NCBI RefSeq assembly: GCF_044324875.1
Contig: NZ_CP172185.1
DNA: 64,000 nucleotides
Direction: 5' to 3' (one strand)
From: Escherichia coli
GTDB taxonomy: Bacteria; Pseudomonadota; Gammaproteobacteria; Enterobacterales; Enterobacteriaceae
The notes below the pieces were generated by a model. The model searched no databases. It was not told the origin of the DNA and saw only the letters and a list, made by a program, of their open reading frames with translations. Positions 46,737 to 60,268 of the stretch are shown in pieces. Position 1 is the first letter of the stretch. Each line of letters starts with the position of its first letter. The position numbers and the translations under genes were made by a program.

Positions 46737-47092
46737 GTAAATTTAGGATTAATCCTGGAACTTTTTTTGTCGCCCAGCCAATGCTTTCAGTCGTGACTAA
46801 TTTTCCTTGCGGAGGCTTGTCTGAAGCGGTTTCCGCGATTTTCTTCTGTAAATTGTCGCTGACAAAAAAGATTAAACGTACCTTATACAAGACTTTTTTT
46901 TCATATGCCTGACGGAGTTCACACTTGTAAGTTTTCAACTACGTTGTAGACTTTACATCGCCAGGGGTGCTCGGCATAAGCCGAAGATATCGGTAGAGTT
47001 AATATTGAGCAGATCCCCCGGTGAAGGATTTAACCGTGTTATCTCGTTGGAGATATTCATGGCGTATTTTGGATGATAACGAGGCGCAAAAA

Positions 47093-48145
47093 ATGAAAAA
47101 GACAGCTATCGCGATTGCAGTGGCACTGGCTGGTTTCGCTACCGTAGCGCAGGCCGCTCCGAAAGATAACACCTGGTACACTGGTGCTAAACTGGGCTGG
47201 TCCCAGTACCATGACACTGGTTTTATTCCTAACAATGGTCCGACCCACGAAAACCAACTGGGTGCAGGTGCTTTTGGTGGTTACCAGGTTAACCCGTATG
47301 TTGGCTTTGAAATGGGTTACGACTGGTTAGGTCGTATGCCGTACAAAGGCGACAACATCAACGGCGCATACAAAGCTCAGGGCGTTCAGCTGACCGCTAA
47401 ACTGGGTTACCCAATCACTGACGATCTGGACATCTACACTCGTCTGGGTGGTATGGTATGGCGTGCAGACACCAAGGCTAACGTACCTGGTGGCGCATCT
47501 TTTAAAGACCACGACACCGGCGTTTCTCCGGTTTTCGCTGGCGGTGTTGAGTACGCGATCACTCCTGAAATCGCTACCCGTCTGGAATACCAGTGGACCA
47601 ACAACATCGGTGACGCACACACCATCGGTACTCGTCCGGACAACGGCATGCTGAGCCTGGGTGTTTCCTACCGTTTCGGTCAGGGCGAAGCAGCTCCAGT
47701 AGTTGCTCCGGCTCCAGCTCCGGCACCGGAAGTACAGACCAAGCACTTCACTCTGAAGTCTGACGTTCTGTTCACCTTCAACAAAGCAACCCTGAAACCA
47801 GAAGGTCAGGCTGCTCTGGATCAGCTGTACAGCCAGCTGAGCAACCTGGATCCGAAAGACGGTTCCGTAGTTGTTCTGGGTTACACTGACCGCATCGGTT
47901 CTGACGCTTACAACCAGGGTCTGTCCGAGCGCCGTGCTCAGTCTGTTGTTGATTACCTGATCTCCAAAGGTATCCCGGCAGACAAGATCTCCGCACGTGG
48001 TATGGGCGAATCCAACCCGGTTACTGGCAACACCTGTGACAACGTGAAACAGCGTGCTGCACTGATCGACTGCCTGGCTCCGGATCGTCGCGTAGAGATC
48101 GAAGTTAAAGGCATCAAAGACGTTGTAACTCAGCCGCAGGCTTAA
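47093..48145 (+). CDS. ompA: Outer membrane protein A (non-K-12 loop allele)
   Basis: Signal peptide [21 protein letters not shown], beta-barrel, APAPAPAP hinge and C-terminal OmpA domain; about 350 aa. Confidence 0.95.
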
Positions 48146-48159
48146 GTTCTCGTCTGGTA

Positions 48160-48189
48160 AAAAACCCCGCTGCTGCGGGGTTTTTTTTG
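48160..48189 (+). terminator. ompA rho-independent terminator
   Basis: aaaaaccccgctgctgcggggtttttttt. Confidence 0.85.
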
Positions 48190-48900
48190 TGCACAGAAAA
48201 CCCCCAGCTAGGCTGGGGGTTCCGGAAAGCTTTCAGCTTTGAGCCAGTTATTAAAACCCCTTTTGATTTGTTAAAACACCTTGCGGTCTGGCAACTGCAA
48301 GTGTCAAACAAGAAATCAAAAGGGGGTCCCAATGGGGAACGAAAAGAGCTTAGCGCACACCCGATGGAACTGTAAATATCACATAGTATTTGCGCCAAAA
48401 TACCGAAGACAGGTGTTCTACAGAGAGAAGCGTAGAGCAATAGGCTGTATTTTGAGAAAGCTGTGTGAGTGGAAAAGTGTACGGATTCTGGAAGCTGAAT
48501 GCTGTGCAGATCATATCCATATGCTTGTGGAGATCCCGCCCAAAATGAGCGTATCAGGCTTTATGGGATATCTGAAAGGGAAAAGCAGTCTGATGCTTTA
48601 CGAGCAGTTTGGTGATTTGAAATTCAAATACAGGAACAGGGAGTTCTGGTGCAGAGGGTATTACGTCGATACGGTGGGTAAGAACACGGCGAAGATACAG
48701 GATTACATAAAGCACCAGCTTGAAGAGGATAAAATGGGAGAGCAGTTATCGATTCCCTATCCGGGCAGCCCGTTTACGGGCCGTAAGTAACGAAGTTGGA
48801 TGCAAATGTCAGATCGTGTGCGCCTGTTAGGGCGCGGCTGGTAAGAGAGCCTTATAGGCGCATTTGAAAAACCTCCGGCTATGCCGGAGGATATTTATTC
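48190..48900 (+). mobile_element. IS200-like insertion sequence (IS200/IS605 family); boundaries approximate
   Basis: Roughly 0.7 kb block between the ompA terminator and the matP 3' end, encoding a Y1/HuH transposase and carrying subterminal hairpins cccccagctaggctggggg (48201..48219) and cctccggctatgccggagg (48872..48890). Confidence 0.8.
48332..48790 (+). CDS. tnpA: IS200 transposase TnpA (Y1 HuH)
   Basis: 152 aa MGNEKSLAHTRWNCKYHIVFAPKYRRQVFY...HIHMLVEIPP...; the HxH motif and conserved Tyr are typical of IS200/IS605 TnpA. Confidence 0.9.
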   Translation: MGNEKSLAHTRWNCKYHIVFAPKYRRQVFYREKRRAIGCILRKLCEWKSVRILEAECCADHIHMLVEIPPKMSVSGFMGYLKGKSSLMLYEQFGDLKFKYRNREFWCRGYYVDTVGKNTAKIQDYIKHQLEEDKMGEQLSIPYPGSPFTGRK

Positions 48901-48931
48901 GTCTTTAGAAAATTGAACTGACTTTCGTCAG

Positions 48932-49384
48932 TTATTCCTTACCCAGCAATGCCTGCAGATCCTGCTTCAAAGAAGACATTTTATTCGCGTATTTCTCTTT
49001 GTTTTCCGCATCTTCAATCAGCTGAACAATCGTTTCAGAAAGCGTTTTACCGCGACGCTGCGCAAGACCAGCCAGACGTTGCCAGACAATAAATTCCAGA
49101 TCGATCGATTTTTTGCGCGTATGCTGGTGTTCCGCATTAAAATGGCGCTTCCGTCTGGCCCGAATGGTTTGCTTCATGCGATTGACCAGTTCCGGATTCA
49201 TATGCTTGTCAATCCAGCCATTTACCAGCACGGGTTCATTTTCCAGCGAGAGCAACACATCGACGGCTTCCTGGGCGGCACTGGCTTCTATGTAACGGGT
49301 GATTAACTCCCCTTCGCGATGCTTCTTCACCAGATACTTCCATTTCCAACCGCTTTCAAGATTTTCAAGTTGTTGATATTTCAT
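48932..49384 (-). CDS. matP: Macrodomain Ter protein MatP
   Basis: 150 aa [52 protein letters not shown]... Confidence 0.95.
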
Positions 49385-49569
49385 AGCGATCTCAATGTTA
49401 CCGTGTAACTCTTTACAGAATATCAGCTTTTTAGGCCAGTGAAGAAAAGAATCTCCATCCTGTGAGCTTTAACGCCCATGCCAGGAGTATTGTCGGTGCT
49501 TTCTACGTGTGCTGCAGTGCCGGTTACGGTATAATCGCGGCTTTGACAACAGACTAAAAAACATCAACT

Positions 49570-51330
49570 TTGACCATTACGAAACTTGCATGGCGTGACC
49601 TGGTTCCTGATACCGATAGCTATCAGGAAATATTTGCTCAGCCACATTTGATTGACGAAAACGATCCTTTATTCAGTGATACTCAACCGCGACTACAATT
49701 TGCGCTGGAGCAGTTGCTGCATACGCGAGCATCCTCCTCTTTTATGCTGGCGAAGGCCCCGGAAGAGTCTGAGTATCTGAATCTTATTGCCGATGCCGCG
49801 CGTGCGCTACAAAGCGATGCAGGCCAACTGGTGGGCGGTCACTATGAGGTTTCCGGGCACACCATCCGCTTACGTAACGCAGTGAGTGCAGATGATAATT
49901 TTGCGACTTTAACGCAAGTTGTCGCTGCCGACTGGGTAGAAGCGGAGCAACTCTTTGGCTGCCTGCGCCAGTTTAATGGCGACATTACCCTGCAGCCAGG
50001 TCTGGTGCATCAGGCAAATGGCGGTATTCTCATCATCTCTTTGCGTACACTGCTGGTGCAACCTCTGCTGTGGATGCGGCTGAAAAATATCGTTAACCGC
50101 GGGCGTTTTGACTGGGTTGCGTTTGATGAGTCGCGCCCTCTCCCCGTCTCTGTGCCTTCGATGCCATTGAAGCTGAAAGTCATTCTGGTAGGCGAACGCG
50201 AATCATTGGCTGATTTCCAGGAGATGGAACCAGAGCTTTCAGAGCAGGCTATTTATAGCGAATTTGAAGATACTCTGCAGATTGTCGATACGGAGTCAGT
50301 AAGCCAGTGGTGTCGCTGGGTAACATTGACCGCAAGACATAATCACTTACCTGCACCGGGAGCGGATGCCTGGCCGGTACTTATCCGCGAAGCAGCCCGC
50401 TACACCGGTGAACAAGAAACACTTCCGCTTAGCCCGCAGTGGATCCTCCGCCAGTGTAAAGAGGTCGCCTCCCTGTGCGATGGCGACACCTTCTCCGGCG
50501 AGCAGATAAACTTAATGCTACAGCAGCGTGAATGGCGCGAAGGTTTCCTCGCTGAACGCATGCAGGATGAGATTCTTCAGGAGCAAATCCTGATTGAAAC
50601 CGAAGGCGAACGCATCGGGCAAATTAACGCCCTTTCGGTCATTGAATTTCCGGGTCATCCACGCGCTTTTGGCGAACCTTCTCGCATTAGCTGCGTTGTG
50701 CATATTGGCGATGGTGAATTCACCGACATCGAACGCAAAGCGGAGCTTGGCGGCAATATCCATGCGAAAGGGATGATGATCATGCAGGCGTTCCTGATGT
50801 CGGAACTACAGCTTGAGCAACAGATCCCCTTCTCAGCATCGCTGACATTTGAGCAGTCATACAGTGAAGTGGATGGCGATAGTGCCTCGATGGCTGAACT
50901 CTGCGCCCTGATAAGCGCCCTCGCCGATGTGCCGGTGAATCAGAGTATCGCTATCACAGGTTCAGTCGATCAGTTCGGTCGTGCCCAGCCGGTCGGTGGT
51001 TTAAATGAGAAAATCGAAGGCTTCTTTGCTATTTGCCAGCAACGTGAGTTAACCGGGAAACAAGGTGTCATTATCCCCACTGCTAACGTTCGCCATTTAA
51101 GTCTTCCCAGTGAACTGTTGAAAGCGGTAGAGGAAGGCAAATTCACCATCTGGGCAGTAGACGATGTGACTGACGCACTGCCGTTATTATTAAATCTGGT
51201 GTGGGATGGCGAAGGCCAAACGACGCTGATGCAAACCATCCAGGAACGTATCGCGCAAGCATCGCAACAGGAAGGACGTCACCGTTTTCCATGGCCATTA
51301 CGTTGGCTGAACTGGTTTATTCCGAACTGA
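49570..51330 (+). CDS. ycbZ: Lon-like protease YcbZ
   Basis: 586 aa; C-terminal Lon protease domain with motifs [17 protein letters not shown] and TGSVDQFG. Confidence 0.9.
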
Positions 51331-51398
51331 TCGGACTTGTTCAGCGTACACGTGTTAGCTATCCTGCGTGCTTCAATAAAATAAGGCTTACAGAGAAC

Positions 51399-51917
51399 AT
51401 GGTAGATAAACGCGAATCCTATACAAAAGAAGACCTTCTTGCCTCTGGTCGCGGTGAACTGTTTGGCGCTAAAGGTCCGCAATTGCCAGCACCGAACATG
51501 CTGATGATGGACCGTGTGGTCAAAATGACCGAAACGGGTGGTAACTTCGACAAAGGGTATGTTGAAGCAGAACTGGATATCAATCCGGATCTGTGGTTCT
51601 TCGGATGCCACTTCATTGGCGATCCGGTTATGCCGGGATGCCTGGGCCTGGACGCAATGTGGCAGCTGGTAGGGTTCTACCTCGGCTGGCTGGGCGGCGA
51701 AGGTAAAGGCCGCGCGCTGGGCGTTGGCGAAGTGAAATTCACCGGTCAGGTACTGCCGACAGCGAAAAAAGTGACCTACCGTATTCACTTTAAACGCATT
51801 GTTAACCGTCGTCTGATTATGGGCCTGGCGGATGGCGAAGTGCTGGTTGATGGTCGTTTGATCTATACCGCCAGCGACCTGAAAGTCGGTCTGTTCCAGG
51901 ATACGTCTGCCTTCTGA
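51399..51917 (+). CDS. fabA: 3-hydroxydecanoyl-ACP dehydratase/isomerase FabA
   Basis: 172 aa [48 protein letters not shown]... Confidence 0.95.
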
Positions 51918-51944
51918 TTATAATCAGACATAGTATCAAAAGGC

Positions 51945-51975
51945 GAAACCTCCGCAATGCGGAGGTTTCTTTTTA
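51945..51975. terminator. Bidirectional terminator between fabA and rmf
   Basis: gaaacctccgcaatgcggaggtttc hairpin followed by tttttaa. Confidence 0.7.
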
Positions 51976-51986
51976 AAGAGACAGAA

Positions 51987-52154
51987 TCAGGCCATTACTA
52001 CCCTGTCCGCCATGGCTTCTCGCCAGCCTCCCAGCCATTGTGACCTTTGATTCAGCGTCTGATAGGGACACATTTCTTTTGAGCGTCCGGCGATGCCGGC
52101 CTGATAACCACGTTGATGTGCCCGTTCCAGGCGATCTCGTTTTTGTCTCTTCAT
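51987..52154 (-). CDS. rmf: Ribosome modulation factor
   Basis: Manual reverse translation gives MKRQKRDRLERAHQRGYQAGIAGRSKEMCPYQTLNQRSQWLGGWREAMADRVVMA (55 aa); the ORF track shows only an out-of-frame ORF here. Confidence 0.85.
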   Translation of the reverse strand: MKRQKRDRLERAHQRGYQAGIAGRSKEMCPYQTLNQRSQWLGGWREAMADRVVMA

Positions 52155-52409
52155 GCCTCGTTTCCCTCATACTGGTTTCTGGTGGAAAAGAAAACAGTGA
52201 TTACTAAATGTGCAATCACAGTTAAGCAATACCGCGAATCATAACTGCCGTCAATGCGCAAAATTCACGCCACTGTCATATTTGTGAGCTACACGGGCAT
52301 GTCGGTTGTACAAAAAATGTGAAGAGGAACAACTTTTTCCGCAAGTTAGAAACAAAAAAACCGCCTCAGGCAACATACCGGAGACGGTTATATTTACAAA
52401 TCTTTATGA

Positions 52410-52973
52410 TTACGGTAGACGCTTTATCTCTTGCGCAATAGAAGCGGCTTCCTGACTCCAGACACTGGCCAGCACTTTAACCATTTCATCGTAACCATCC
52501 TGAGTTTGCACCCCTTCCAGACGGAACGGACGTTTGATCAGTTGTCCCTGGTGGTTCAACAGCCACTCACCACTGACAATGACCTTGCCATCATATCGCC
52601 CGTTAAACTCCGTTACGGTAACATTGAGCGTATCCTGGGCGCTTCCCAGAGGCTGGGAGGCAACCACCCAGCCGGGCAGTTGCGTGCTCAGGTTGGCAAC
52701 CAGAGTGTTGCGCAACTGTTGATCCAACGGGCTGGCCCACAAGTTGTTGTTGGCAATCACATACTTCACATCACTGGTTTGATAAACCACACCATTCCCC
52801 GCCAGATAGTCAGGAACAGTGACCTGCTCTACCCATAACAGGCGATTACCCTGGCTGGCGGTACTTTGTGTACCGCTCTGCACCACAGGTAACTGGTAAT
52901 AGTTTTTATTAATTTCGCCGGAGCTGCATCCGGCCAGCCACAGTGCTGCAATCGTCACTAGCCACTTTTTCAT
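52410..52973 (-). CDS. pqiC: Lipoprotein PqiC (YmbA)
   Basis: 187 aa with lipobox MKKWLVTIAALWLAGCSS. Confidence 0.9.
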   Translation of the reverse strand: MKKWLVTIAALWLAGCSSGEINKNYYQLPVVQSGTQSTASQGNRLLWVEQVTVPDYLAGNGVVYQTSDVKYVIANNNLWASPLDQQLRNTLVANLSTQLPGWVVASQPLGSAQDTLNVTVTEFNGRYDGKVIVSGEWLLNHQGQLIKRPFRLEGVQTQDGYDEMVKVLASVWSQEAASIAQEIKRLP

Positions 52974-54610
52974 TGTTTCGCCCTCTTCGGCTCTGGATCT
53001 TTTTTGTCCTTCGCTTCAAATACCAGCGCGTTACTCTTCTCATTGAGCGTTTTCAGCACCGGTTGCAGTTCTCGCAACACCTGATCAAGGCGCTGCATAT
53101 CCGCCACCATCTTGTTGTAGGCTGCGGAGCCAGGCTGGAAGCCCTGCATGCTGCGATTCAATTCACGCAACGTTGACTGCATATCCGTCGGCAACTGCTG
53201 CATCGACTGGCTGGCGAGGATCTTGTTCATGCTATCCAGCGTCGTTTGCAGGTTTTTCATTGTGCGCTGACTTTCAGAAAGCGTACTGGTTGCCTGTTCA
53301 ATCATCGGATTCAATGGCAGTTTGTTGATCTTATCCAACGCTTCCATCAGTCGTTGCTGGATTTGCGCCAGACCGCCGCTAACGGTCGGGATAATCTGAT
53401 AGCCATTAAATTCACGAATACCGGTTATTGCAGGCGTATTTGGATAGAAATCGAGATCAACATACAGTGCGCCAGTGACCAGGTTTCCGGTTTTCAGCGA
53501 TCCGCGTAAACCACGTTTCAACAATTCGCCAAGGTGCTCAACAACATCCGCATTTTCGCCAAGCTGCATTTTCAGCCGCTCTGGCTCGATACGAATCAGT
53601 ACCGGAATACGGTAATCATCGTTAAATGTCTGACGCATATTCGGCGCAAAGAATGGCACTTTGCTTACGGTACCCAGGCGAATACCCCGGAATTCTACCG
53701 GAGCTCCCGGTTGCAGACCGCGTACCGAATCTTTAAAGAACATCAGATAATCAATGTGATCGGTGTACAACGAATCCTGAATGCTCTTCTGATCATCATA
53801 CAAAACGAAAGCTGTTTTCGGTGCCACTGGCTGCCCTAAATCCAGACCTTCCGGCACATCAAAGCTGACACCGCCACTAAGCAGCGTTGTCAATGAGCCC
53901 ATCTCCACACGCATCCCCGCTGACGTCAGATCAACCGCAATGCCACTATCTTTCCAGAAGCGAACATTGCTGGTCACCAGTCGGTCATAAGGTGCATTGA
54001 TGAACAGTTGATAGCTGATATTGCGTTTTTGCGTATCGAAGGTGCTGGTTTCAACCGAACCTACCCGATAGCCACGGAACAGCACGGGATCTCCTGGCGA
54101 GAGCTGCCCGGCTTTTTTGCTATCGAGAATCACACGGATACCTTTCGCATCAGGCGGGGCCAACGGTGGCGAGTCCAGCAAATCGTATTTATCCATTTTG
54201 CTGCCTTTCGCGCCTGGCTGCAGTTCGATATAAACCCCAGACAGCAGCGTTCCCAGGCCGCTAATCCCTTCTCGACCAATCTGCGGTTTCACCACCCAAA
54301 AGACGGTATCTTTATGCAGCAATTTTTCCATACCGGAATTCAGCCGCGCTTTGATTTCAACGTGCGTCAAATCATCAGCCAGTGTGGCGCTTTCAACCAC
54401 GCCGACGTCAACGCTACGGCTTTTAATGGTGGTTTTACCACCTTCAATTCCTTCCGCATTCGCGGTGATCAGGGTCACTTCCGGCCCCTGATGGCTGTAA
54501 TGATAAAATAGAACCCAGGCCCCAATGAGCGCCGTGACGATAGGAAATATCCACACGGGAGACCAGTTCTTCACTTTCTGGATTTTGGCTTCCCCATTAT
54601 TAGATTCCAT
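52970..54610 (-). CDS. pqiB: MCE-domain protein PqiB
   Basis: 546 aa from MESNNGEAKIQKVKNWSPVWIFPIV... Confidence 0.9.
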   Translation of the reverse strand: MESNNGEAKIQKVKNWSPVWIFPIVTALIGAWVLFYHYSHQGPEVTLITANAEGIEGGKTTIKSRSVDVGVVESATLADDLTHVEIKARLNSGMEKLLHKDTVFWVVKPQIGREGISGLGTLLSGVYIELQPGAKGSKMDKYDLLDSPPLAPPDAKGIRVILDSKKAGQLSPGDPVLFRGYRVGSVETSTFDTQKRNISYQLFINAPYDRLVTSNVRFWKDSGIAVDLTSAGMRVEMGSLTTLLSGGVSFDVPEGLDLGQPVAPKTAFVLYDDQKSIQDSLYTDHIDYLMFFKDSVRGLQPGAPVEFRGIRLGTVSKVPFFAPNMRQTFNDDYRIPVLIRIEPERLKMQLGENADVVEHLGELLKRGLRGSLKTGNLVTGALYVDLDFYPNTPAITGIREFNGYQIIPTVSGGLAQIQQRLMEALDKINKLPLNPMIEQATSTLSESQRTMKNLQTTLDSMNKILASQSMQQLPTDMQSTLRELNRSMQGFQPGSAAYNKMVADMQRLDQVLRELQPVLKTLNEKSNALVFEAKDKKDPEPKRAKQ

Positions 54611-54614
54611 ACTG

Positions 54615-55868
54615 TCAGGACTCCTCATGCTCTGATTCAGGTTGACGATCCCACGACAAACGCGGGTCAAACGTCATAGCAGAAAACATTGTCATTATGA
54701 CGACTAAAGCAAACATTAATGCACCCATTGCCGGATAAATACTCATTAAACCTCCCATACGCACCAGCGCCGAGAGCACCGCGATAACGAAAACGTCAAT
54801 CATCGACCAGCGGCCTACAAACTCAACAACTTCATAAATCAAATGCATTCTTTCACTGTCGCGCTTGCCATGCCCTTTGGCATCCCAACACAACCACGCT
54901 ATGGCGATCATCTTTAACGTTGGCACCATAATACTGGCCAGAAAGATAACCGCAGCGACGGGATAAGATCCTTCGCTCCATAACAGGATGACCCCAGCGA
55001 GAATCGTCGATGGCATCTTCGAGCCTAATAAATCCGTCACCATGATGGGCAAAATATTAGCCGGAAGATACAGCATGATGGACGTAACAAGCAGCGCGAG
55101 TGTCCATTGCAGGCTGTTTCTACGTCGAACGTACCCTTTGGTACTACAACGCGGGCACACGGGTTCGTCAGCAGGAAGGATTGCCGTACAACAGGAGCAC
55201 GAACGCAGCCCCTGACGTATCCCCGTGACGCCAGGTTTTAGCGGCTGGCGCAGTTCTGGCATCGGGGCGATATCGTCCCATAACCAGCGACGATCAACGC
55301 ACTGAAAGGCGCGCAGTTGCAGGACACAAAATAAACACCAGGGGAGAAAGCTGCTGCCGACACCAATGCTGCCGTAGGCCATCAGTTTAACGAAACTGAC
55401 CAGCACACCCGCGAGGAAAATCTCCGCCATTCCCCAGGTTTTGAGTTGAAAAAGCACCCGTGCCAGTTGCTCTTTTAAACGGACCGGTAATTCCGCGCGA
55501 TTCACCAGTAACAGAATGGTTATCAGACAAAACGCGGGAACCAGTTGCACAAACAACAGGAAAAAGGTGCCGAGGCTGGCGTAGTCCTCAGAAAAAAGCA
55601 CGCCGGGAATTTCCAGTAATGTAATTTCACTGGTGACTCCCGCAACGTTCATATTCACAAAAGGAAACAAGTTGGACAGCAACAGCATGAACAGTGCAGC
55701 CAACGCATAGGCGGTGGGACGCTGCCGAGGGGCATCCCACGCCACGGTTAACGTTGTGCCACACCGGGGACATGCCGCTTTCTGACCATGCTCAAGGCGC
55801 GGTAACGCCACCAGCATGTCACACTGCGAGCACAGGATGTGCTTCGCGGCATGATGATGTTCGCACAT
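54615..55868 (-). CDS. pqiA: Paraquat-inducible membrane protein PqiA
   Basis: 417 aa with paired CxxC motifs and transmembrane segments. Confidence 0.9.
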   Translation of the reverse strand: MCEHHHAAKHILCSQCDMLVALPRLEHGQKAACPRCGTTLTVAWDAPRQRPTAYALAALFMLLLSNLFPFVNMNVAGVTSEITLLEIPGVLFSEDYASLGTFFLLFVQLVPAFCLITILLLVNRAELPVRLKEQLARVLFQLKTWGMAEIFLAGVLVSFVKLMAYGSIGVGSSFLPWCLFCVLQLRAFQCVDRRWLWDDIAPMPELRQPLKPGVTGIRQGLRSCSCCTAILPADEPVCPRCSTKGYVRRRNSLQWTLALLVTSIMLYLPANILPIMVTDLLGSKMPSTILAGVILLWSEGSYPVAAVIFLASIMVPTLKMIAIAWLCWDAKGHGKRDSERMHLIYEVVEFVGRWSMIDVFVIAVLSALVRMGGLMSIYPAMGALMFALVVIMTMFSAMTFDPRLSWDRQPESEHEES

Positions 55869-55997
55869 TGGTACTCCTTAATGATGCGCTATTTTACAGA
55901 TGACTAACAAAGTGTTGGTTTTCATGCCTGATAAACCCAGTTCATCAGGCAATTTTACCGTTGTCAGCCGTCTCTGTTTAAATCGACTATTTTGCGA

Positions 55998-57905
55998 TCA
56001 GCCACCATTTTTTAACGCTTCAAGATACTCCCAGCGTTCAAAGGCTTGCTCCAGCTCCTGCTCTGCAGCAGCCATATCGGCGAGCACTTTTTGCGTCTGC
56101 TCATGGGGCTGAGTGAAGAAGGAAGCATCCGCCACCTGCGTCTGTAGGGCTTCCAGCTTCGCCTCCAGATCTTCGAGCAATTGCGGTAGCTGCTCCAGTT
56201 CGCGCTGCAATTTATAGCTTAGTTTGCTACTGCTGCGTTTTACAGTTTCTGCTTTTGGCGCGGCGGCTTCTTCGATTTTTTTCACCGCAGGCTGTTTGAG
56301 CGCCACATACTGTTCTTGCTGACCACGGGCATCATGATAACCGCCGACATAACGACCAATTTTACCGCCGCCTTCGAAGATCCAGCATTCTGTAACGGTG
56401 TTATCGACAAACTGACGATCGTGGCTCACCAGCAATACCGTGCCCTGGTAGCTGTCGATCAGTTCTTCCAGCAGTTCCAGCGTTTCAACATCAAGATCGT
56501 TGGTCGGTTCGTCAAGAATCAATAAGTTGCTTGGTTTGAGGAACAAACGCGCCAACAACAAGCGGTTACGCTCACCGCCAGAAAGCGCACGTACCGGCGT
56601 CATCGCCCGTTTCGGATGGAACAGGAAGTCCTGCAAATAGCCCAAAACATGGCGTGGCTTGCCGTTAACCATCACCTCTTGCTTACCTTCAGCAAGGTTA
56701 TCCATCACCGTTTTATCGGGATCCAGTTCCGCACGGTGCTGATCGAAATAAGCCACTTCCAGTTTGGTGCCAACGTGAATACGCCCGCTGTCCGCCTGAA
56801 GCTGACCGAGCATCAGTTTCAGCAGCGTGGTTTTGCCGCATCCATTCGGACCAATCAGGGCAATTTTGTCGCCACGTAGAACCTGGGCAGAAAAATCTTT
56901 CACCAGTTGCTTACCGTCGACCTGGTAGCAAACGTCTTCCATTTCGAAAACGATCTTACCGGAGCGGCTGGCCTCTTCCACCTGCATCTTTGCGGTACCC
57001 ATCACTTCGCGACGTTCGCCACGCTCGCGACGCATTGCTTTCAGGGCGCGTACGCGGCCTTCATTACGGGTACGGCGTGCTTTGATCCCCTGGCGGATCC
57101 ACACCTCTTCCTGCGCCAGTTTGCGATCGAACTCGGCATTTTGTAGTTCTTCCACACGCAGAGCTTCTTCTTTTTCCAGCAGGTACTGGTCGTAATTCCC
57201 TGGATAGGTCACAAGTTTGCCGCGATCGAGATCAACAATGCGCGTCGCCATATTGCGGATAAACGAACGGTCGTGGGAGATGAAAATTATCGTCCCATTG
57301 AAGGTTTTGAGAAACCCTTCCAGCCAGTCGATGGTTTCGATATCCAGGTGGTTAGTCGGTTCGTCGAGCAGCAATACGCGCGGATTGCTCACCAGCGCGC
57401 GTCCTAATGCCGCTTTACGCAACCAACCGCCGGAAAGCGACGACAGCGCAACATTAGGATCTAACCCCAGTTGCGCCAGCACTTCGTTGATGCGGTTTTC
57501 CAGCTGCCACAGGTTGTGGTGATCCAGCTGTTCCTGAACCTTCGCCAGTTCGTTGAGATTTTTCTCGCTCGGGTCGTTCATCACCAGGCGCGAAATATCG
57601 TGATAGCGTTTCAGGTATTCCGCTTGTTCTTCAATGCCTTCGGCAACGAAATCATAAACGCTACCCTCAACGTTACGCGGCGGATCCTGTTGCAGACGAG
57701 CGACAATCAAATCTTGCTCGTAAATAATGCGACCGTCATCCAGCCCCTGTTCACGGTTGAGGATTTTCATTAACGTCGATTTGCCTGCGCCGTTGCGGCC
57801 CACCAGACAAACACGTTCGTTATCTTCGATATGCAGTTCTGCGTTATCGAGAAGCGGCGCGTCGCTGAACGACAGCCATGCGCCATGCATACTGATTAAT
57901 GACAT
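55998..57905 (-). CDS. uup: ABC-F ATPase Uup
   Basis: 635 aa with two ABC cassettes (GRNGAGKST, GPNGCGKTT) and a C-terminal coiled coil. Confidence 0.95.
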   Translation of the reverse strand: MSLISMHGAWLSFSDAPLLDNAELHIEDNERVCLVGRNGAGKSTLMKILNREQGLDDGRIIYEQDLIVARLQQDPPRNVEGSVYDFVAEGIEEQAEYLKRYHDISRLVMNDPSEKNLNELAKVQEQLDHHNLWQLENRINEVLAQLGLDPNVALSSLSGGWLRKAALGRALVSNPRVLLLDEPTNHLDIETIDWLEGFLKTFNGTIIFISHDRSFIRNMATRIVDLDRGKLVTYPGNYDQYLLEKEEALRVEELQNAEFDRKLAQEEVWIRQGIKARRTRNEGRVRALKAMRRERGERREVMGTAKMQVEEASRSGKIVFEMEDVCYQVDGKQLVKDFSAQVLRGDKIALIGPNGCGKTTLLKLMLGQLQADSGRIHVGTKLEVAYFDQHRAELDPDKTVMDNLAEGKQEVMVNGKPRHVLGYLQDFLFHPKRAMTPVRALSGGERNRLLLARLFLKPSNLLILDEPTNDLDVETLELLEELIDSYQGTVLLVSHDRQFVDNTVTECWIFEGGGKIGRYVGGYHDARGQQEQYVALKQPAVKKIEEAAAPKAETVKRSSSKLSYKLQRELEQLPQLLEDLEAKLEALQTQVADASFFTQPHEQTQKVLADMAAAEQELEQAFERWEYLEALKNGG

Positions 57906-57916
57906 TACTATTCCTT

Positions 57917-60025
57917 TCAGGCTGCGGTAATCAGCCAGCAGTTGTGGATCTGGCGGTTACGGGCGAAATCCTGGGAGAGCGTTTTTTGCGTAATTTCTTG
58001 TGCTTTCAGTCCTAGTTTTGCCAGTCCGTCAAGATCCATACGGAAGCCACGTTTGTTGTTCGAGAACATTATCGTCCCACCAGCACGCAGCAGACGTTTC
58101 AAATCTTTCATCAGCGCCAGATGATCGCGCTGAACATCAAACGCATCTTCCATTCGTTTTGAGTTAGAGAAGGTTGGCGGATCGATAAAGATCAGATCGA
58201 ACTGTTCATTTGCCTCACGCAGCCACGCCAGGCAATCGGCCTGAATCAGGCGATGCGCACGCCCGGTTAGGCCATTCAGACGCAGGTTGCGTTCTGCCCA
58301 CTCCAGATAAGTACGCGACATATCCACGGTGGTGGTGCTGCGTGCACCGCCTAATCCCGCATGCACGGTGGCACTGCCGGTATAAGAGAACAGGTTGAGG
58401 AAATCTTTGCCTTTGCTCATCTGACCGAGCATACGGCGGGCGATACGGTGATCGAGGAACAGACCAGTATCGAGATAATCCGTCAGGTTCACCCACAAGT
58501 GAGCGTTATATTCGGTAACTTCAAGAAACTCGCCCTTCTCGCCCAGTTTCTGGTACTGGTTTTTGCCCTTCTGGCGTTCGCGGGTTTTCAGTACCAGTTT
58601 GTTTGGCGCAATCCCCAGTACCGAAATGGTTGCAGCGATAATATCGAACAGACGCTGACGCGCTTTGTGCGCATCAATAGTTTTTGGCGGCGCATACTCC
58701 TGCACCACCACCCAATCGGCGTAGCGGTCAACTGCAACGTTGTATTCCGGTAGATCGGCGTCGTACAGGCGGTAGCATTCAATGCCTTCCTGACGCGCCC
58801 ACTTCTCGAATTTTTTGAGGTTCTTACGCAGACGGTTGGCGTAGTCTTCTGCCACCATTGCCGGTTTGCTGTCTGGTGTGCTTTCGGCAACGTGGTAATT
58901 TTTCTGCACGCAGTCTAATGGACCGTTTTTCGCTTTGTACTGTTTGTCTGCACGCAACTGCAGGCAACTTAACAGATCCGGCGAGGCACTGAATAAAGAG
59001 AGATTCCAGCCGCCGAACTGGTTTTTCATGATTCGGCCCAGCAGGCTATGCAGCGCAATCAGCGCCGGTTCGCTGTCCAGACGTTCACCGTATGGCGGGT
59101 TGCTCAACACTGTACCGTACGGCCCTTTCGGCAGCGGATTGGTCAGTTGCGCGACATCTTTCACCTCAAAGGTGATCAGTTCACCAATCCCCGCAAGACG
59201 GGCGTTAGTGCGCGCACGTTGAATCACCCGTGCGTCGCTGTCCGAACCGTAAAAATGAGAGCTATACTCAGCCAGGCCTTTACGGGCGCGAGTTTGCGCT
59301 TCCGCTTTCACTTCCTGCCAGATAGCTTCATCATGCTGCGCCCAGCCGCTAAAGCCCCAACGCCCACGGTGCAAGCCTGGTGCGCGATCGGTCGCCAGCA
59401 TCGCCGCTTCAATCAGCAACGTACCGGAACCACACATCGGATCGAGCAGCGGTGTTCCTGGCTGCCAGCCGGATCGCATCACAATAGCGGCTGCCAGGGT
59501 TTCTTTGATCGGCGCAATACCAGCACGATCGCGATAGCCACGCAGATGTAAACCATCACCACTGAGATCAAGGGCGATACTGGCGGTTTCTTTATGCAGC
59601 CAGACGTTAACGCGGATATCCGGCGCATCACGATCAACATTTGGACGCGGCAGATTTTTCCGCGTGAAAGCATCGACAATCGCGTCTTTCACTTTCATCG
59701 CACCGTACTGACTGTTGCGGATGGTGTCATTCAAACCACTGAAGTGGACAGCGAAGGTCGCGCCAGGATTAAACATCTCTGTCCAGTTGATCGCCTGAAC
59801 ACCGAGATAGAGGTCTAAATCGCTGTAAACCTTACACTCGCCCAGCGGCAACATAATACGCGAGGCCAGGCGGCTCCACATCAGGCTCTGGTAAACAAGC
59901 CGTGTGTCGCCCTTGAAATGGACCCCACCCTGAACCACCTGGCATTCAACGGCCCCCAGGTTTTCCAGTTCAGTTTTTAACAGCTCTTCCAGCCCACGGG
60001 CCGTACTGGCAAACAGAGAATTCAT
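57917..60025 (-). CDS. rlmL: Bifunctional 23S rRNA methyltransferase RlmKL
   Basis: 702 aa [34 protein letters not shown]... Confidence 0.95.
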
Positions 60026-60268
60026 ATCGTCACTTTTACTCTAAGAGCCTACCGCAGTAGGCGTAATTGTTGCAGTCAGTCTGGACATGGACAGCGCGGA
60101 GAAACCGGAGCGTACACAAGTACGTGAGGATTTCGAGCACTTCCCTGGGCCAAACTGACAAATAAAATAGCCTAATGGGACAGGCGCTAAGAAAATTGTT
60201 GCGCATTATAGCTAATAAGCGCGTCATGTCATAAAGTTGAGGGCTTATTTTCATTTGAGGACCGCATC

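Follow-up and report, generated by a model that had tools for sequence, protein, structure and literature searches.

IS200C, its family (IS200/IS605), its regulatory RNAs and the absence of inverted repeats and target duplications are textbook knowledge. The element of the same group described for Salmonella enterica is IS200 (Lam & Roth 1983; Beuzon 1999; Ellis 2015), 707 bp in length, for which the regulatory functions were demonstrated. In its published map a hairpin at nt 12–34 ‘acts as a transcription terminator’, is bidirectional and shields tnpA, and the 5'UTR forms a stem-loop at nt 69–138 in which the Shine-Dalgarno sequence is buried (Ellis 2015, PMC4513863). The same source describes IS200 as notoriously inactive in the laboratory. 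IS1541 of Yersinia pestis and Y. pseudotuberculosis shares the left-end hairpin and the right end GAAAAACCTCCGGCTATGCCGGAGGATATTTATT with IS200C, and is distinct by its left end, GTGCCCAG, and by differences in the 5'UTR and the coding sequence. It reaches a high copy number, with at least 47 loci in one genome, tandem copies included. Odaert is said to have found in 1998 that IS1541 copies lie a short distance downstream of co-oriented genes.

A transposase of the same Y1/HUH TnpA fold family and direct-repeat subterminal hairpins are also found in IS608 (H. pylori) and ISDra2 (D. radiodurans), which, like IS200C, have no inverted repeats or target duplication and insert 3' of a target of 4–5 nt adjoining the left end. 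In IS608 a tetranucleotide 5' of each hairpin reportedly forms base pairs with the cleavage site (Barabas 2008). The model for IS608 puts the active top strand on the lagging-strand template, and insertion in highly transcribed rrn genes was reported for this element (PMC5027513).

Host stem-loops serve other mobile elements as well. Group II introns of class C, in bacteria, have their insertion sites behind intrinsic terminators, and host stem-loops are the homing sites of REP-targeting insertion sequences such as ISPpu9 (PMC8450116). Both resemble IS200C in the use of intergenic host stem-loops as low-cost insertion sites, but their machinery, a retroelement ribonucleoprotein for the class C introns and an IS110-type recombinase for ISPpu9, is unrelated and the likeness is one of behaviour only. 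Terminator-like sequences were found to be over-represented just upstream of IS200/IS605 elements (preprint 10.1101/2025.07.22.666184).

The copy described here lies in a stretch of 64,000 nt of Escherichia coli (assembly GCF_044324875.1, contig NZ_CP172185.1), referred to as the window. It is a known element at a new and apparently lineage-specific site, between ompA and matP; location alone sets it apart from other IS200C copies.

The IS200C copy between ompA and matP

The following features were located at the site of insertion:

47093..48145, + strand: ompA coding sequence (Pfam OmpA_membrane 1.2e-79, OmpA 8.7e-24; annotated as ompA in matching E. coli genomes)
48159..48188, + strand: intrinsic terminator of ompA, a hairpin AAAAAACCCCGC-TGCT-GCGGGGTTTTTT followed by eight T residues (T8, 48181–48188), from sequence and fold
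48189..48899, + strand: IS200C, complete copy of 711 bp, GTGCACAG...ATATTTATT, delimited by empty-site alignment and by the common extent of eight other copies
48332..48790, + strand: tnpA, intact, for a Y1/HUH transposase of 152 aa (H61-I-H63, Y125, Q129), from Pfam and structure alignment
48932..49384, − strand: matP coding sequence, convergent and downstream of IS200C (Pfam MatP 6e-44, MatP_C 6.3e-31; annotated as matP in matching genomes)

A megablast search with positions 48150–48950 against 5,426 complete E. coli genomes returned near-full-length matches in 1,951 of these, annotated by PGAP as “IS200/IS605-like element IS200C family transposase”, and identity to the annotated IS200C loci was 98–100% over query positions 33/34–750. 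Eight copies from other E. coli loci could be aligned over 711/711 nt with 99.3–100% identity, and the TnpA protein is identical to proteins annotated as IS200C family. IS200C is the ISfinder name, and the assignment was made by comparison with copies so annotated in other E. coli genomes. Judged from these alignments, positions 48189–48899 represent an intact, full-length IS200C of the IS200 group, IS200/IS605 family, with the architecture of that group (711 bp, tnpA without tnpB). The left end was also recognised by Rfam model STnc490 (IS200 left end) over 48199–48322, with 146.4 bits (E = 3.5e-31) against a gathering score of 56. Besides tnpA, no ORF of more than 108 aa was found on either strand within IS200C, and a family match was obtained in tnpA only. 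IS200C occurs as a single copy in the 64-kb window and each of its end-hairpin sequences occurs once, with zero expected; together with the 99.3–100% identity over 711 bp to copies elsewhere, this excludes chance.

The initial annotation had placed an IS200-like element of roughly 0.7 kb, with a 152-aa Y1/HuH transposase, between the ompA terminator and the 3' end of matP. Type and position were both borne out, the last T of T8 (48188) adjoining the left end, and so was the expectation of a small element without terminal inverted repeats, since none were found when the termini of IS200C were compared for repeats. Its coordinates, 48190–48900, were one base off at each end; alignment to known copies, which it had proposed for fixing the ends, gave the 711 nt common to the eight other IS200C copies, at 48189–48899.

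The tnpA product matched Pfam family PF01797 (Y1_Tnp) with an E-value of 1.7e-37 over profile positions 2–121 of 121, and the solved IS200/IS605-family structures 2EC2, 2F4F, 2A6M (IS608) and 2XM3 (ISDra2) with E-values of 1e-22 to 4e-16, the range for solved TnpA homologues reaching 1e-14, in agreement with the similarity to IS200/IS605 transposases that had been anticipated for the product of 48332..48790. The catalytic HUH motif DHIHMLV (H61-I-H63) was aligned on DHIHLFV of 2EC2/2F4F, and the catalytic tyrosine in DYIKHQ (Y125, Q129) on KYIEEQ of the same structures. An identical TnpA protein was found on contigs in 6,869 blocks of a public assembly index.

Collinearity with E. coli extends over the whole window. 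Its best identity to the 5,426 complete genomes was 98.4–99.4%, indicating a somewhat divergent lineage, and no other insertion sequence was seen within the 64 kb. Shigella, considered as a source in view of this identity, is unlikely given the collinearity and the lack of further insertion sequences. The co-oriented gene upstream of IS200C is ompA, the terminator of which was the insertion target. The stem of this terminator is a perfect 12-nt inverted repeat and folds as single-stranded DNA with −14 kcal/mol (z = −4.5); its T8 directly adjoins the left end of IS200C. Weak Rfam matches to Leu_leader, istR, RsmY, anti-hemB and Ysr202, all far below the gathering scores, concerned terminator hairpins only and were rejected.

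In the alignment, empty sites read GGGG-T8/CGTCT and the occupied site T8/IS/CGTCT, the slash marking the boundary. The junctions were as follows:

Strain 50579417 (closest complete genome, flanks 98.9% identical), empty: CGGGG-T8/CGTCTATAG
K-12, empty: CGGGG-T8/GCCTTTAG
Window, occupied: CGGGG-T8/GTGCACAG...ATATTTATT/CGTCTTTAG

Alignment with K-12 and strain 50579417, both empty at this position, shows IS200C as added exactly 3' of the eighth T, without target duplication and with nothing lost; the record span of empty genomes was shorter by 712 bp. Both the flank and IS200C have T as their last base, which formally allows a shift of the boundary by as much as 2 nt; the family rule, with the target outside the element, was followed as convention. 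The empty site of K-12, the comparison with which had been suggested in the initial annotation, has T8 followed directly by the matP-proximal spacer, and the same ompA hairpin and T8 are present in strain 50579417. The idea that hairpin and T-run are part of the element was rejected, the hairpin being different at every site and that of ompA being present when the site is empty.

The ompA–matP site was occupied in none of the 5,426 complete E. coli genomes, where a 3.5-kb query across the site reached a best coverage of 81%, corresponding to the empty state. Nor was the occupied site seen in any of 10 different contexts in which an identical OmpA is encoded, and the 43-nt left junction was not found in JGI metagenome contigs. 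The suggestion that the element is a useful strain marker agrees well with this distribution.

Ends and RNA structures of the element

Within IS200C, the following structures were recognised:

48196..48200, + strand: GAAAA 5' of the left-end hairpin, candidate guide for the T-rich target by analogy with IS608
48199..48221, + strand: left-end hairpin AACCCCCAGC-TAG-GCTGGGGGTT, a perfect 10-bp stem with two A·T pairs (fold, inverted repeat)
48201..48219, + strand: hairpin part of the left-end core AAAA-CCCCCAGC-TAG-GCTGGGGG (sequence)
48252..48342, − strand: putative art200 antisense sRNA gene, about 90 nt, starting at IS nt 153/154 (homology to Salmonella IS200)
48257..48325, + strand: 5'UTR stem-loop, IS nt 69–137, predicted to bury the Shine-Dalgarno sequence (fold, Rfam STnc490, inverted repeat)
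48866..48899, + strand: right end with GAAAAA, hairpin CCTCCGGC-TAT-GCCGGAGG (48872–48890) and ATATTTATT (fold, repeats)

The layout is the same within about 1 nt as that of Salmonella IS200, with which the terminator hairpin (nt 11–33), the stem-loop (nt 69–137), the ATG of tnpA (nt 144) and the art200 region are shared; the length (711 against 707 bp) and the host species differ. The helix predicted at nt 69–137 has a folding energy of −35.4 kcal/mol (z = −5.3) and its inverted repeat is 94% complementary. By the published map, the left-end hairpin (nt 11–33) would be both the subterminal hairpin for TnpA and a bidirectional terminator. On the minus strand a −35-like TTTACA (48376–48371) is followed 17 nt later by a poor −10 box, CTAAGC; for art200 a good −35 and a poor −10 box were described in the source of its coordinates (Ellis 2015, PMC4513863). 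A simple scan of positions 46900–49600 found no sigma-70 consensus promoter, which fits published accounts of the tnpA and art200 promoters as weak or undefined.

The hairpins of the left and right end are direct repeats of 78% identity, in which paired changes keep the stem, and both fold stably. In a Vibrio variant the right-end stem is likewise kept through compensatory changes (CCACCGG/CCGGTGG). The right end closes with TTATT, resembling a cleavage site, and is terminator-like on both strands, the minus-strand hairpin being followed by TTTTT and facing matP. GAAAA stands before the left-end hairpin in most variants across taxa among the matches listed, and IS nt 1–7 vary; rare alternatives, again among the matches listed, were GAAAC, GAACC, CGAAA and CCAAAA. 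The right-end hairpin is preceded by GAAAAA. As GAAAA is complementary to the flank consensus TTNTT described below, it is probably, by analogy with IS608, the guide by which the T-rich target is read.

Target sites of IS200-group elements

All eight other E. coli IS200C sites follow the hairpin and T-run of a co-oriented upstream gene (ompX, rnb in two assemblies, yccA, ldr, ydgJ, htpX and luxS), 35–80 bp after the stop codon. Species-representative genomes were scanned for the 22-nt left-end hairpin, which yielded at least 120 loci. Among the matches listed were Y. pestis (IS1541), Vibrio, Brenneria, Edwardsiella and Mailhella/Desulfovibrio, and furthermore gut metagenome-assembled genomes placed in Bacillota, Peptococcaceae, Oxalobacter, Saccharibacteria and Elusimicrobia. 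Together with the E. coli sites, these loci gave 125 distinct left flanks among the matches listed. A flank was scored as strictly terminator-like if it had a perfect or near-perfect stem, at least three GC pairs and at least five T in the last 8 nt, with the following result:

IS200-group left flanks, among the matches listed: 109/125 strictly terminator-like, most of the other 16 with imperfect stems
Random positions in the same loci (control): 9/3,000 strictly terminator-like
Random T-rich ends (control): 9/141 (6%) strictly terminator-like

Landing beside a terminator hairpin had been regarded as consistent with the family; the association turned out stronger than that, a terminator being the near-universal left flank. 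Next to the element the flanks have the consensus TTNTT over five bases, T being present at −1 in 125/125 and at −2 in 123/125 of the flanks among the matches listed, and the distance from the GC stem to the insertion point was 5–9 nt in 107/117 sites among the matches listed. The TTATT of the element's own right end fits the same pattern. In these respects IS200C departs from IS608 and ISDra2: its target is the T-rich TTNTT instead of TTAC or TTGAT and is coupled to an adjacent hairpin of the host, for which the IS608 model has no counterpart, its right-end cleavage sequence fits the target consensus so that tandem copies are allowed, and tnpB is lacking.

In Y. pestis NCTC5923 a copy of IS1541 lies directly after the T8 of the Yersinia ompA terminator, at the orthologous position. 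Because a different element, with left end GTGCCCAG, occupies the orthologous base, this insertion is an event independent of that in E. coli. Tandem copies of IS1541 were also seen in Y. pestis, with one copy adjoining the right-end hairpin and TTATT of another. The double use of ompA and the tandem arrangement fit better with active targeting than with neutral insertions that merely survived. A built-in guide mimicking the right end was considered in the form of an A-run before the target hairpin; at least four A in 6 nt were present at 53/117 occupied and 126/301 unoccupied sites among the matches listed and, because the upstream A-run was not enriched, the idea of a guide supplied by the terminator was dropped.

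In the searchable literature, the older IS200/IS1541 papers lying outside it, no statement was found of the rule at base level (TTNTT, 5–9 nt past a GC stem, with a matching right end), of the mostly conserved GAAAA or of the independent double hit at ompA. The TTNTT/5–9 nt rule, GAAAA and the double ompA event are a refinement, obtained in silico, of a known tendency.

The replication strand was assessed for copies from Y. pestis, Vibrio ruber and Mailhella, with the GC skew of 3–15 kb flanks as a proxy. Among the matches listed, 55/64 copies lay on the G-rich strand compared to 27/42 terminator-like sites of these loci that carry no copy (Fisher p = 0.016). The IS200 group seems to share the strand bias of the family, most copies among the matches listed being placed as the lagging-strand template model of IS608 expects. 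In the window the GC skew of the plus strand amounts to −0.027 over 63 kb, with a cumulative curve that declines steadily. The top strand of this IS200C copy is therefore on the C-rich strand, which is the leading-strand template, and ompA is head-on to replication.

The orientation of the window copy is that of a minority, about 14% of copies among the matches listed, and is opposite to the one favoured by the IS608/ISDra2 replication model, counter to its lagging-strand prediction.

Origin and consequences of the insertion

With a probability of about 90%, IS200C inserted into an empty ompA–matP spacer by the mechanism of its family, at the T-tract of the terminator, and is now a near-silent, neutral marker. 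As in the ‘peel and paste’ cycle of IS608 and ISDra2, the Y1/HUH transposase TnpA would excise the top strand as a single-stranded circle and paste it 3' of a short single-stranded target. This target would be the TTNTT that ends a terminator T-tract after a GC hairpin, and the GAAAA that precedes the left-end hairpin would probably recognise it; the right end (GAAAAA, hairpin, ...TTATT) has the same layout as the target. Once inserted, the copy would be near-silent, with the ompA terminator and its own bidirectional left-end terminator blocking incoming transcription. The co-orientation with ompA pointed out in the initial annotation is correct; the readthrough from ompA into tnpA that it considered appears unlikely, since transcription would have to pass an intact ompA terminator and, 11 bp further on, the terminator of the element itself. 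The formation of the ompA 3' end should be unchanged, because the coding sequence, the hairpin and the full T8 are untouched. Transcripts of matP, which formerly ran into the bidirectional ompA hairpin, would now first reach the right-end hairpin and T5, about 42 nt past the stop codon, and the 3' end of matP is probably relocated yet still terminated.

An older presence at this site has very little probability. In that case the element would have resided between ompA and matP in an ancestor and the empty sites elsewhere would result from precise excision. Excision of IS200/IS605 elements is seamless, and an empty site alone cannot be distinguished from one that was never occupied; the lineage is also somewhat divergent, with its best identity of 98.4–99.4% to 5,426 genomes. 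However, none of these complete genomes is occupied, the junction is absent from JGI metagenome contigs and the copy is 100% identical to one at another locus in another strain, a sign of recent transposition or transfer. In Y. pestis the copy at ompA is the different element IS1541, with left end GTGCCCAG, and does not speak for common ancestry either. Recruitment by the host, which might draw regulatory RNA from the copy (art200, the processed RNA of the tnpA 5'UTR) or use it as a new 3' end for matP, is likewise quite improbable. RNAs derived from the IS200 5'UTR do regulate Salmonella genes in trans (PMC5435999), all RNA elements are intact in the window copy by sequence and predicted fold, and matP now first meets the right-end hairpin and T5. 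Against this, the copy is indistinguishable from those at many other loci, and none of the 5,426 complete E. coli genomes shares the occupied site with the lineage of the window.

That the terminator bias reflects selection only is unlikely, even if purifying selection could contribute to it. IS200C would then insert at any accessible T-rich pentanucleotide, and copies at terminators would be the survivors, with no gene or operon disrupted and a silent transposase. The position just past a terminator is plausibly the most neutral one in a compact genome, and upstream terminators were proposed to limit transposase expression and favour persistence (preprint 10.1101/2025.07.22.666184). The hairpin at 109/125 sites among the matches listed, against 6% of random T-rich ends, and the narrow distance of 5–9 nt are nevertheless of a precision and near-universality hard to obtain by selection alone, and many insertions would be just as neutral in AT-rich promoter spacers. 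Insertion in tandem after the right-end hairpin of another copy has no obvious selective reason, and the same ompA base was used independently in E. coli and Y. pestis.

The gene ompA is among the most heavily transcribed ones. Taken together with the use of rrn genes by IS608, this makes the transcription-exposed non-template strand a reasonable speculation for the source of the single-stranded target. It is tentatively proposed, as a possibility with clearly less than even chances, that IS200-group transposases use host terminators (GC hairpin, 5–9 nt, TTNTT) as structure-specific targets of single-stranded DNA and that, where the target is carried by the leading-strand template and the gene is very highly transcribed and head-on, as ompA is, this DNA is supplied by the non-template strand of a pausing or terminating transcription complex and not by the replication fork. 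If true, a target layout that mirrors the right end would explain both the tandem copies and the recurrent independent insertions at ompA in E. coli and Y. pestis. The terminator bias itself is partly reported; its exact rule and the route through transcription are proposals.

In the strain, neither ompA and its terminator nor matP is damaged by the insertion, the main use of which would be that of a neutral, lineage-specific marker. Of some further value are the general targeting rule and the orientation of the window copy, whose placement on the leading-strand template is unexplained. Across phyla, about 90% of the IS200-group copies among the matches listed directly follow the last T of an intrinsic terminator, which offers a simple way to fix their ends in annotation. 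The rule would predict hot spots such as ompA and explain why these elements are so benign and so persistent, and with it the IS200 group becomes a case in which recognition of host DNA structure, together with a short sequence, by a single-strand transposase can be tested.

Genomic setting of the IS200C copy

The window (1-64000) is collinear over its full length with the tor-put-rut-hya-app-sulA-ompA-matP-pqi-uup region of E. coli, and no second insertion sequence was found in these 64,000 nt beyond the IS200C copy that follows the ompA terminator T8. Upon comparison with 5,426 complete E. coli genomes, the highest identity was 98.4% for positions 1-24000, 99.0% for 24000-46000, 98.9% for the flanks in the ompA region and 99.4% for 49000-64000, with a different best-matching genome for each segment. 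Such values point to an E. coli lineage that is probably either mosaic or thinly covered by sampling.

Structures at the junction and within the element

Four features were located at the insertion junction and towards both ends of the element:

48175-48208 (+), imperfect palindrome of 13-19 nt formed by the insertion junction, GGGGTTTTTTTTG / CACAGAAAACCCC
48199-48322 (+), match to the Rfam STnc490 model on the sense strand (IS nt 11-134)
48819-48862 (+), imperfect inverted repeat, TGCGCCTGTTAGG / CCTTATAGGCGCA, 85% complementary with a spacer of 18 nt
48867-48956 (-), weak match to Rfam Ysr202, a Yersinia sRNA (28.6 bits; gathering score, 315)

One half of the junction palindrome is supplied by the ompA terminator, through its 3' arm and T-tract, and the other by GAAAACCCC of the IS200C left end. 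In the predicted fold, both native hairpins form without competition from it. The palindrome illustrates the complementarity of GAAAA, the putative guide 5' of the left-end hairpin, to the T-tract.

The STnc490 match covers the terminator hairpin and the stem-loop of the tnpA 5'UTR. The STnc490/art200 sRNA after which the family was named is described as antisense, with a start at nt 153/154 and a length of about 90 nt (Ellis 2015). Since the model lies on the sense strand, a match to it identifies an IS200 left end but shows neither on which strand the sRNA lies nor how far it extends.

The inverted repeat is placed between the stop codon of tnpA and the right-end hairpin and is kept in IS1541, the distinct IS200-group element of Yersinia, as well as in the Edwardsiella and Vibrio variants. 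It might be a 3' structure of tnpA or part of right-end recognition. The Ysr202 match is due to the right-end hairpin plus T-run; with a score far below the gathering score, a Ysr202 homologue at this position was rejected. The match suggests that Ysr202 of Yersinia ends in the right end of IS1541.

End hairpins in other genomes

The exact 22-nt left-end hairpin CCCCCAGCTAGGCTGGGGGTTC was present, among the matches listed (L024-L095), in metagenome-assembled and other genomes of several phyla. The former were assigned to Bacillota, Peptococcaceae, Saccharibacteria, Elusimicrobiaceae, Oxalobacter and Mailhella/Desulfovibrio, and further carriers were Vibrio and several Enterobacterales. Many of these listed contigs stop within the element. 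Either the element has spread horizontally over a very wide range while its hairpin stayed invariant, or some of the contigs were mis-binned.

In LT903847.1, an E. coli chromosome, three copies of IS200C (L007, L008 and L011) are broken within their end hairpins, two of them at IS nt 18 and the third in the right-end hairpin loop. The interrupting DNA consists of the IS50/Tn5 end sequences CTGTCTCTTGATCAGATCT and ...TGTGTATAAGAGACAG, and a Tn5-type transposase gene adjoins the interrupted copies. These breaks could stem from Tn5 inserting into hairpin DNA or from rearrangements between copies.

The ompA terminator as an insertion site and the right end as a possible target in Yersinia

IS1541 was found at the following loci of Yersinia pestis NCTC5923:

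L140, NZ_UAVH01000006.1 277947-279885, IS1541 starting at about position 1516 of the locus
L099, tandem IS1541 copies at 2660 and 3370
L101, tandem IS1541 copies at 12604 and 13314

The tandem copies, also seen at L098, are head-to-tail and 710 bp apart, the downstream copy beginning directly 3' of the right-end hairpin-ATATTTATT of the upstream one. This layout fits a right end that itself meets the target rule, with a hairpin plus TTATT. At L140, IS1541 directly adjoins the Yersinia ompA terminator T8 (...GAAAAACCCCGCGCTATGCGGGGTTTTTTTT|GTGCCCAG...). Its position is orthologous to that of IS200C in the window, whereas the element is a different one; the ompA terminator was thus independently hit in two genera.
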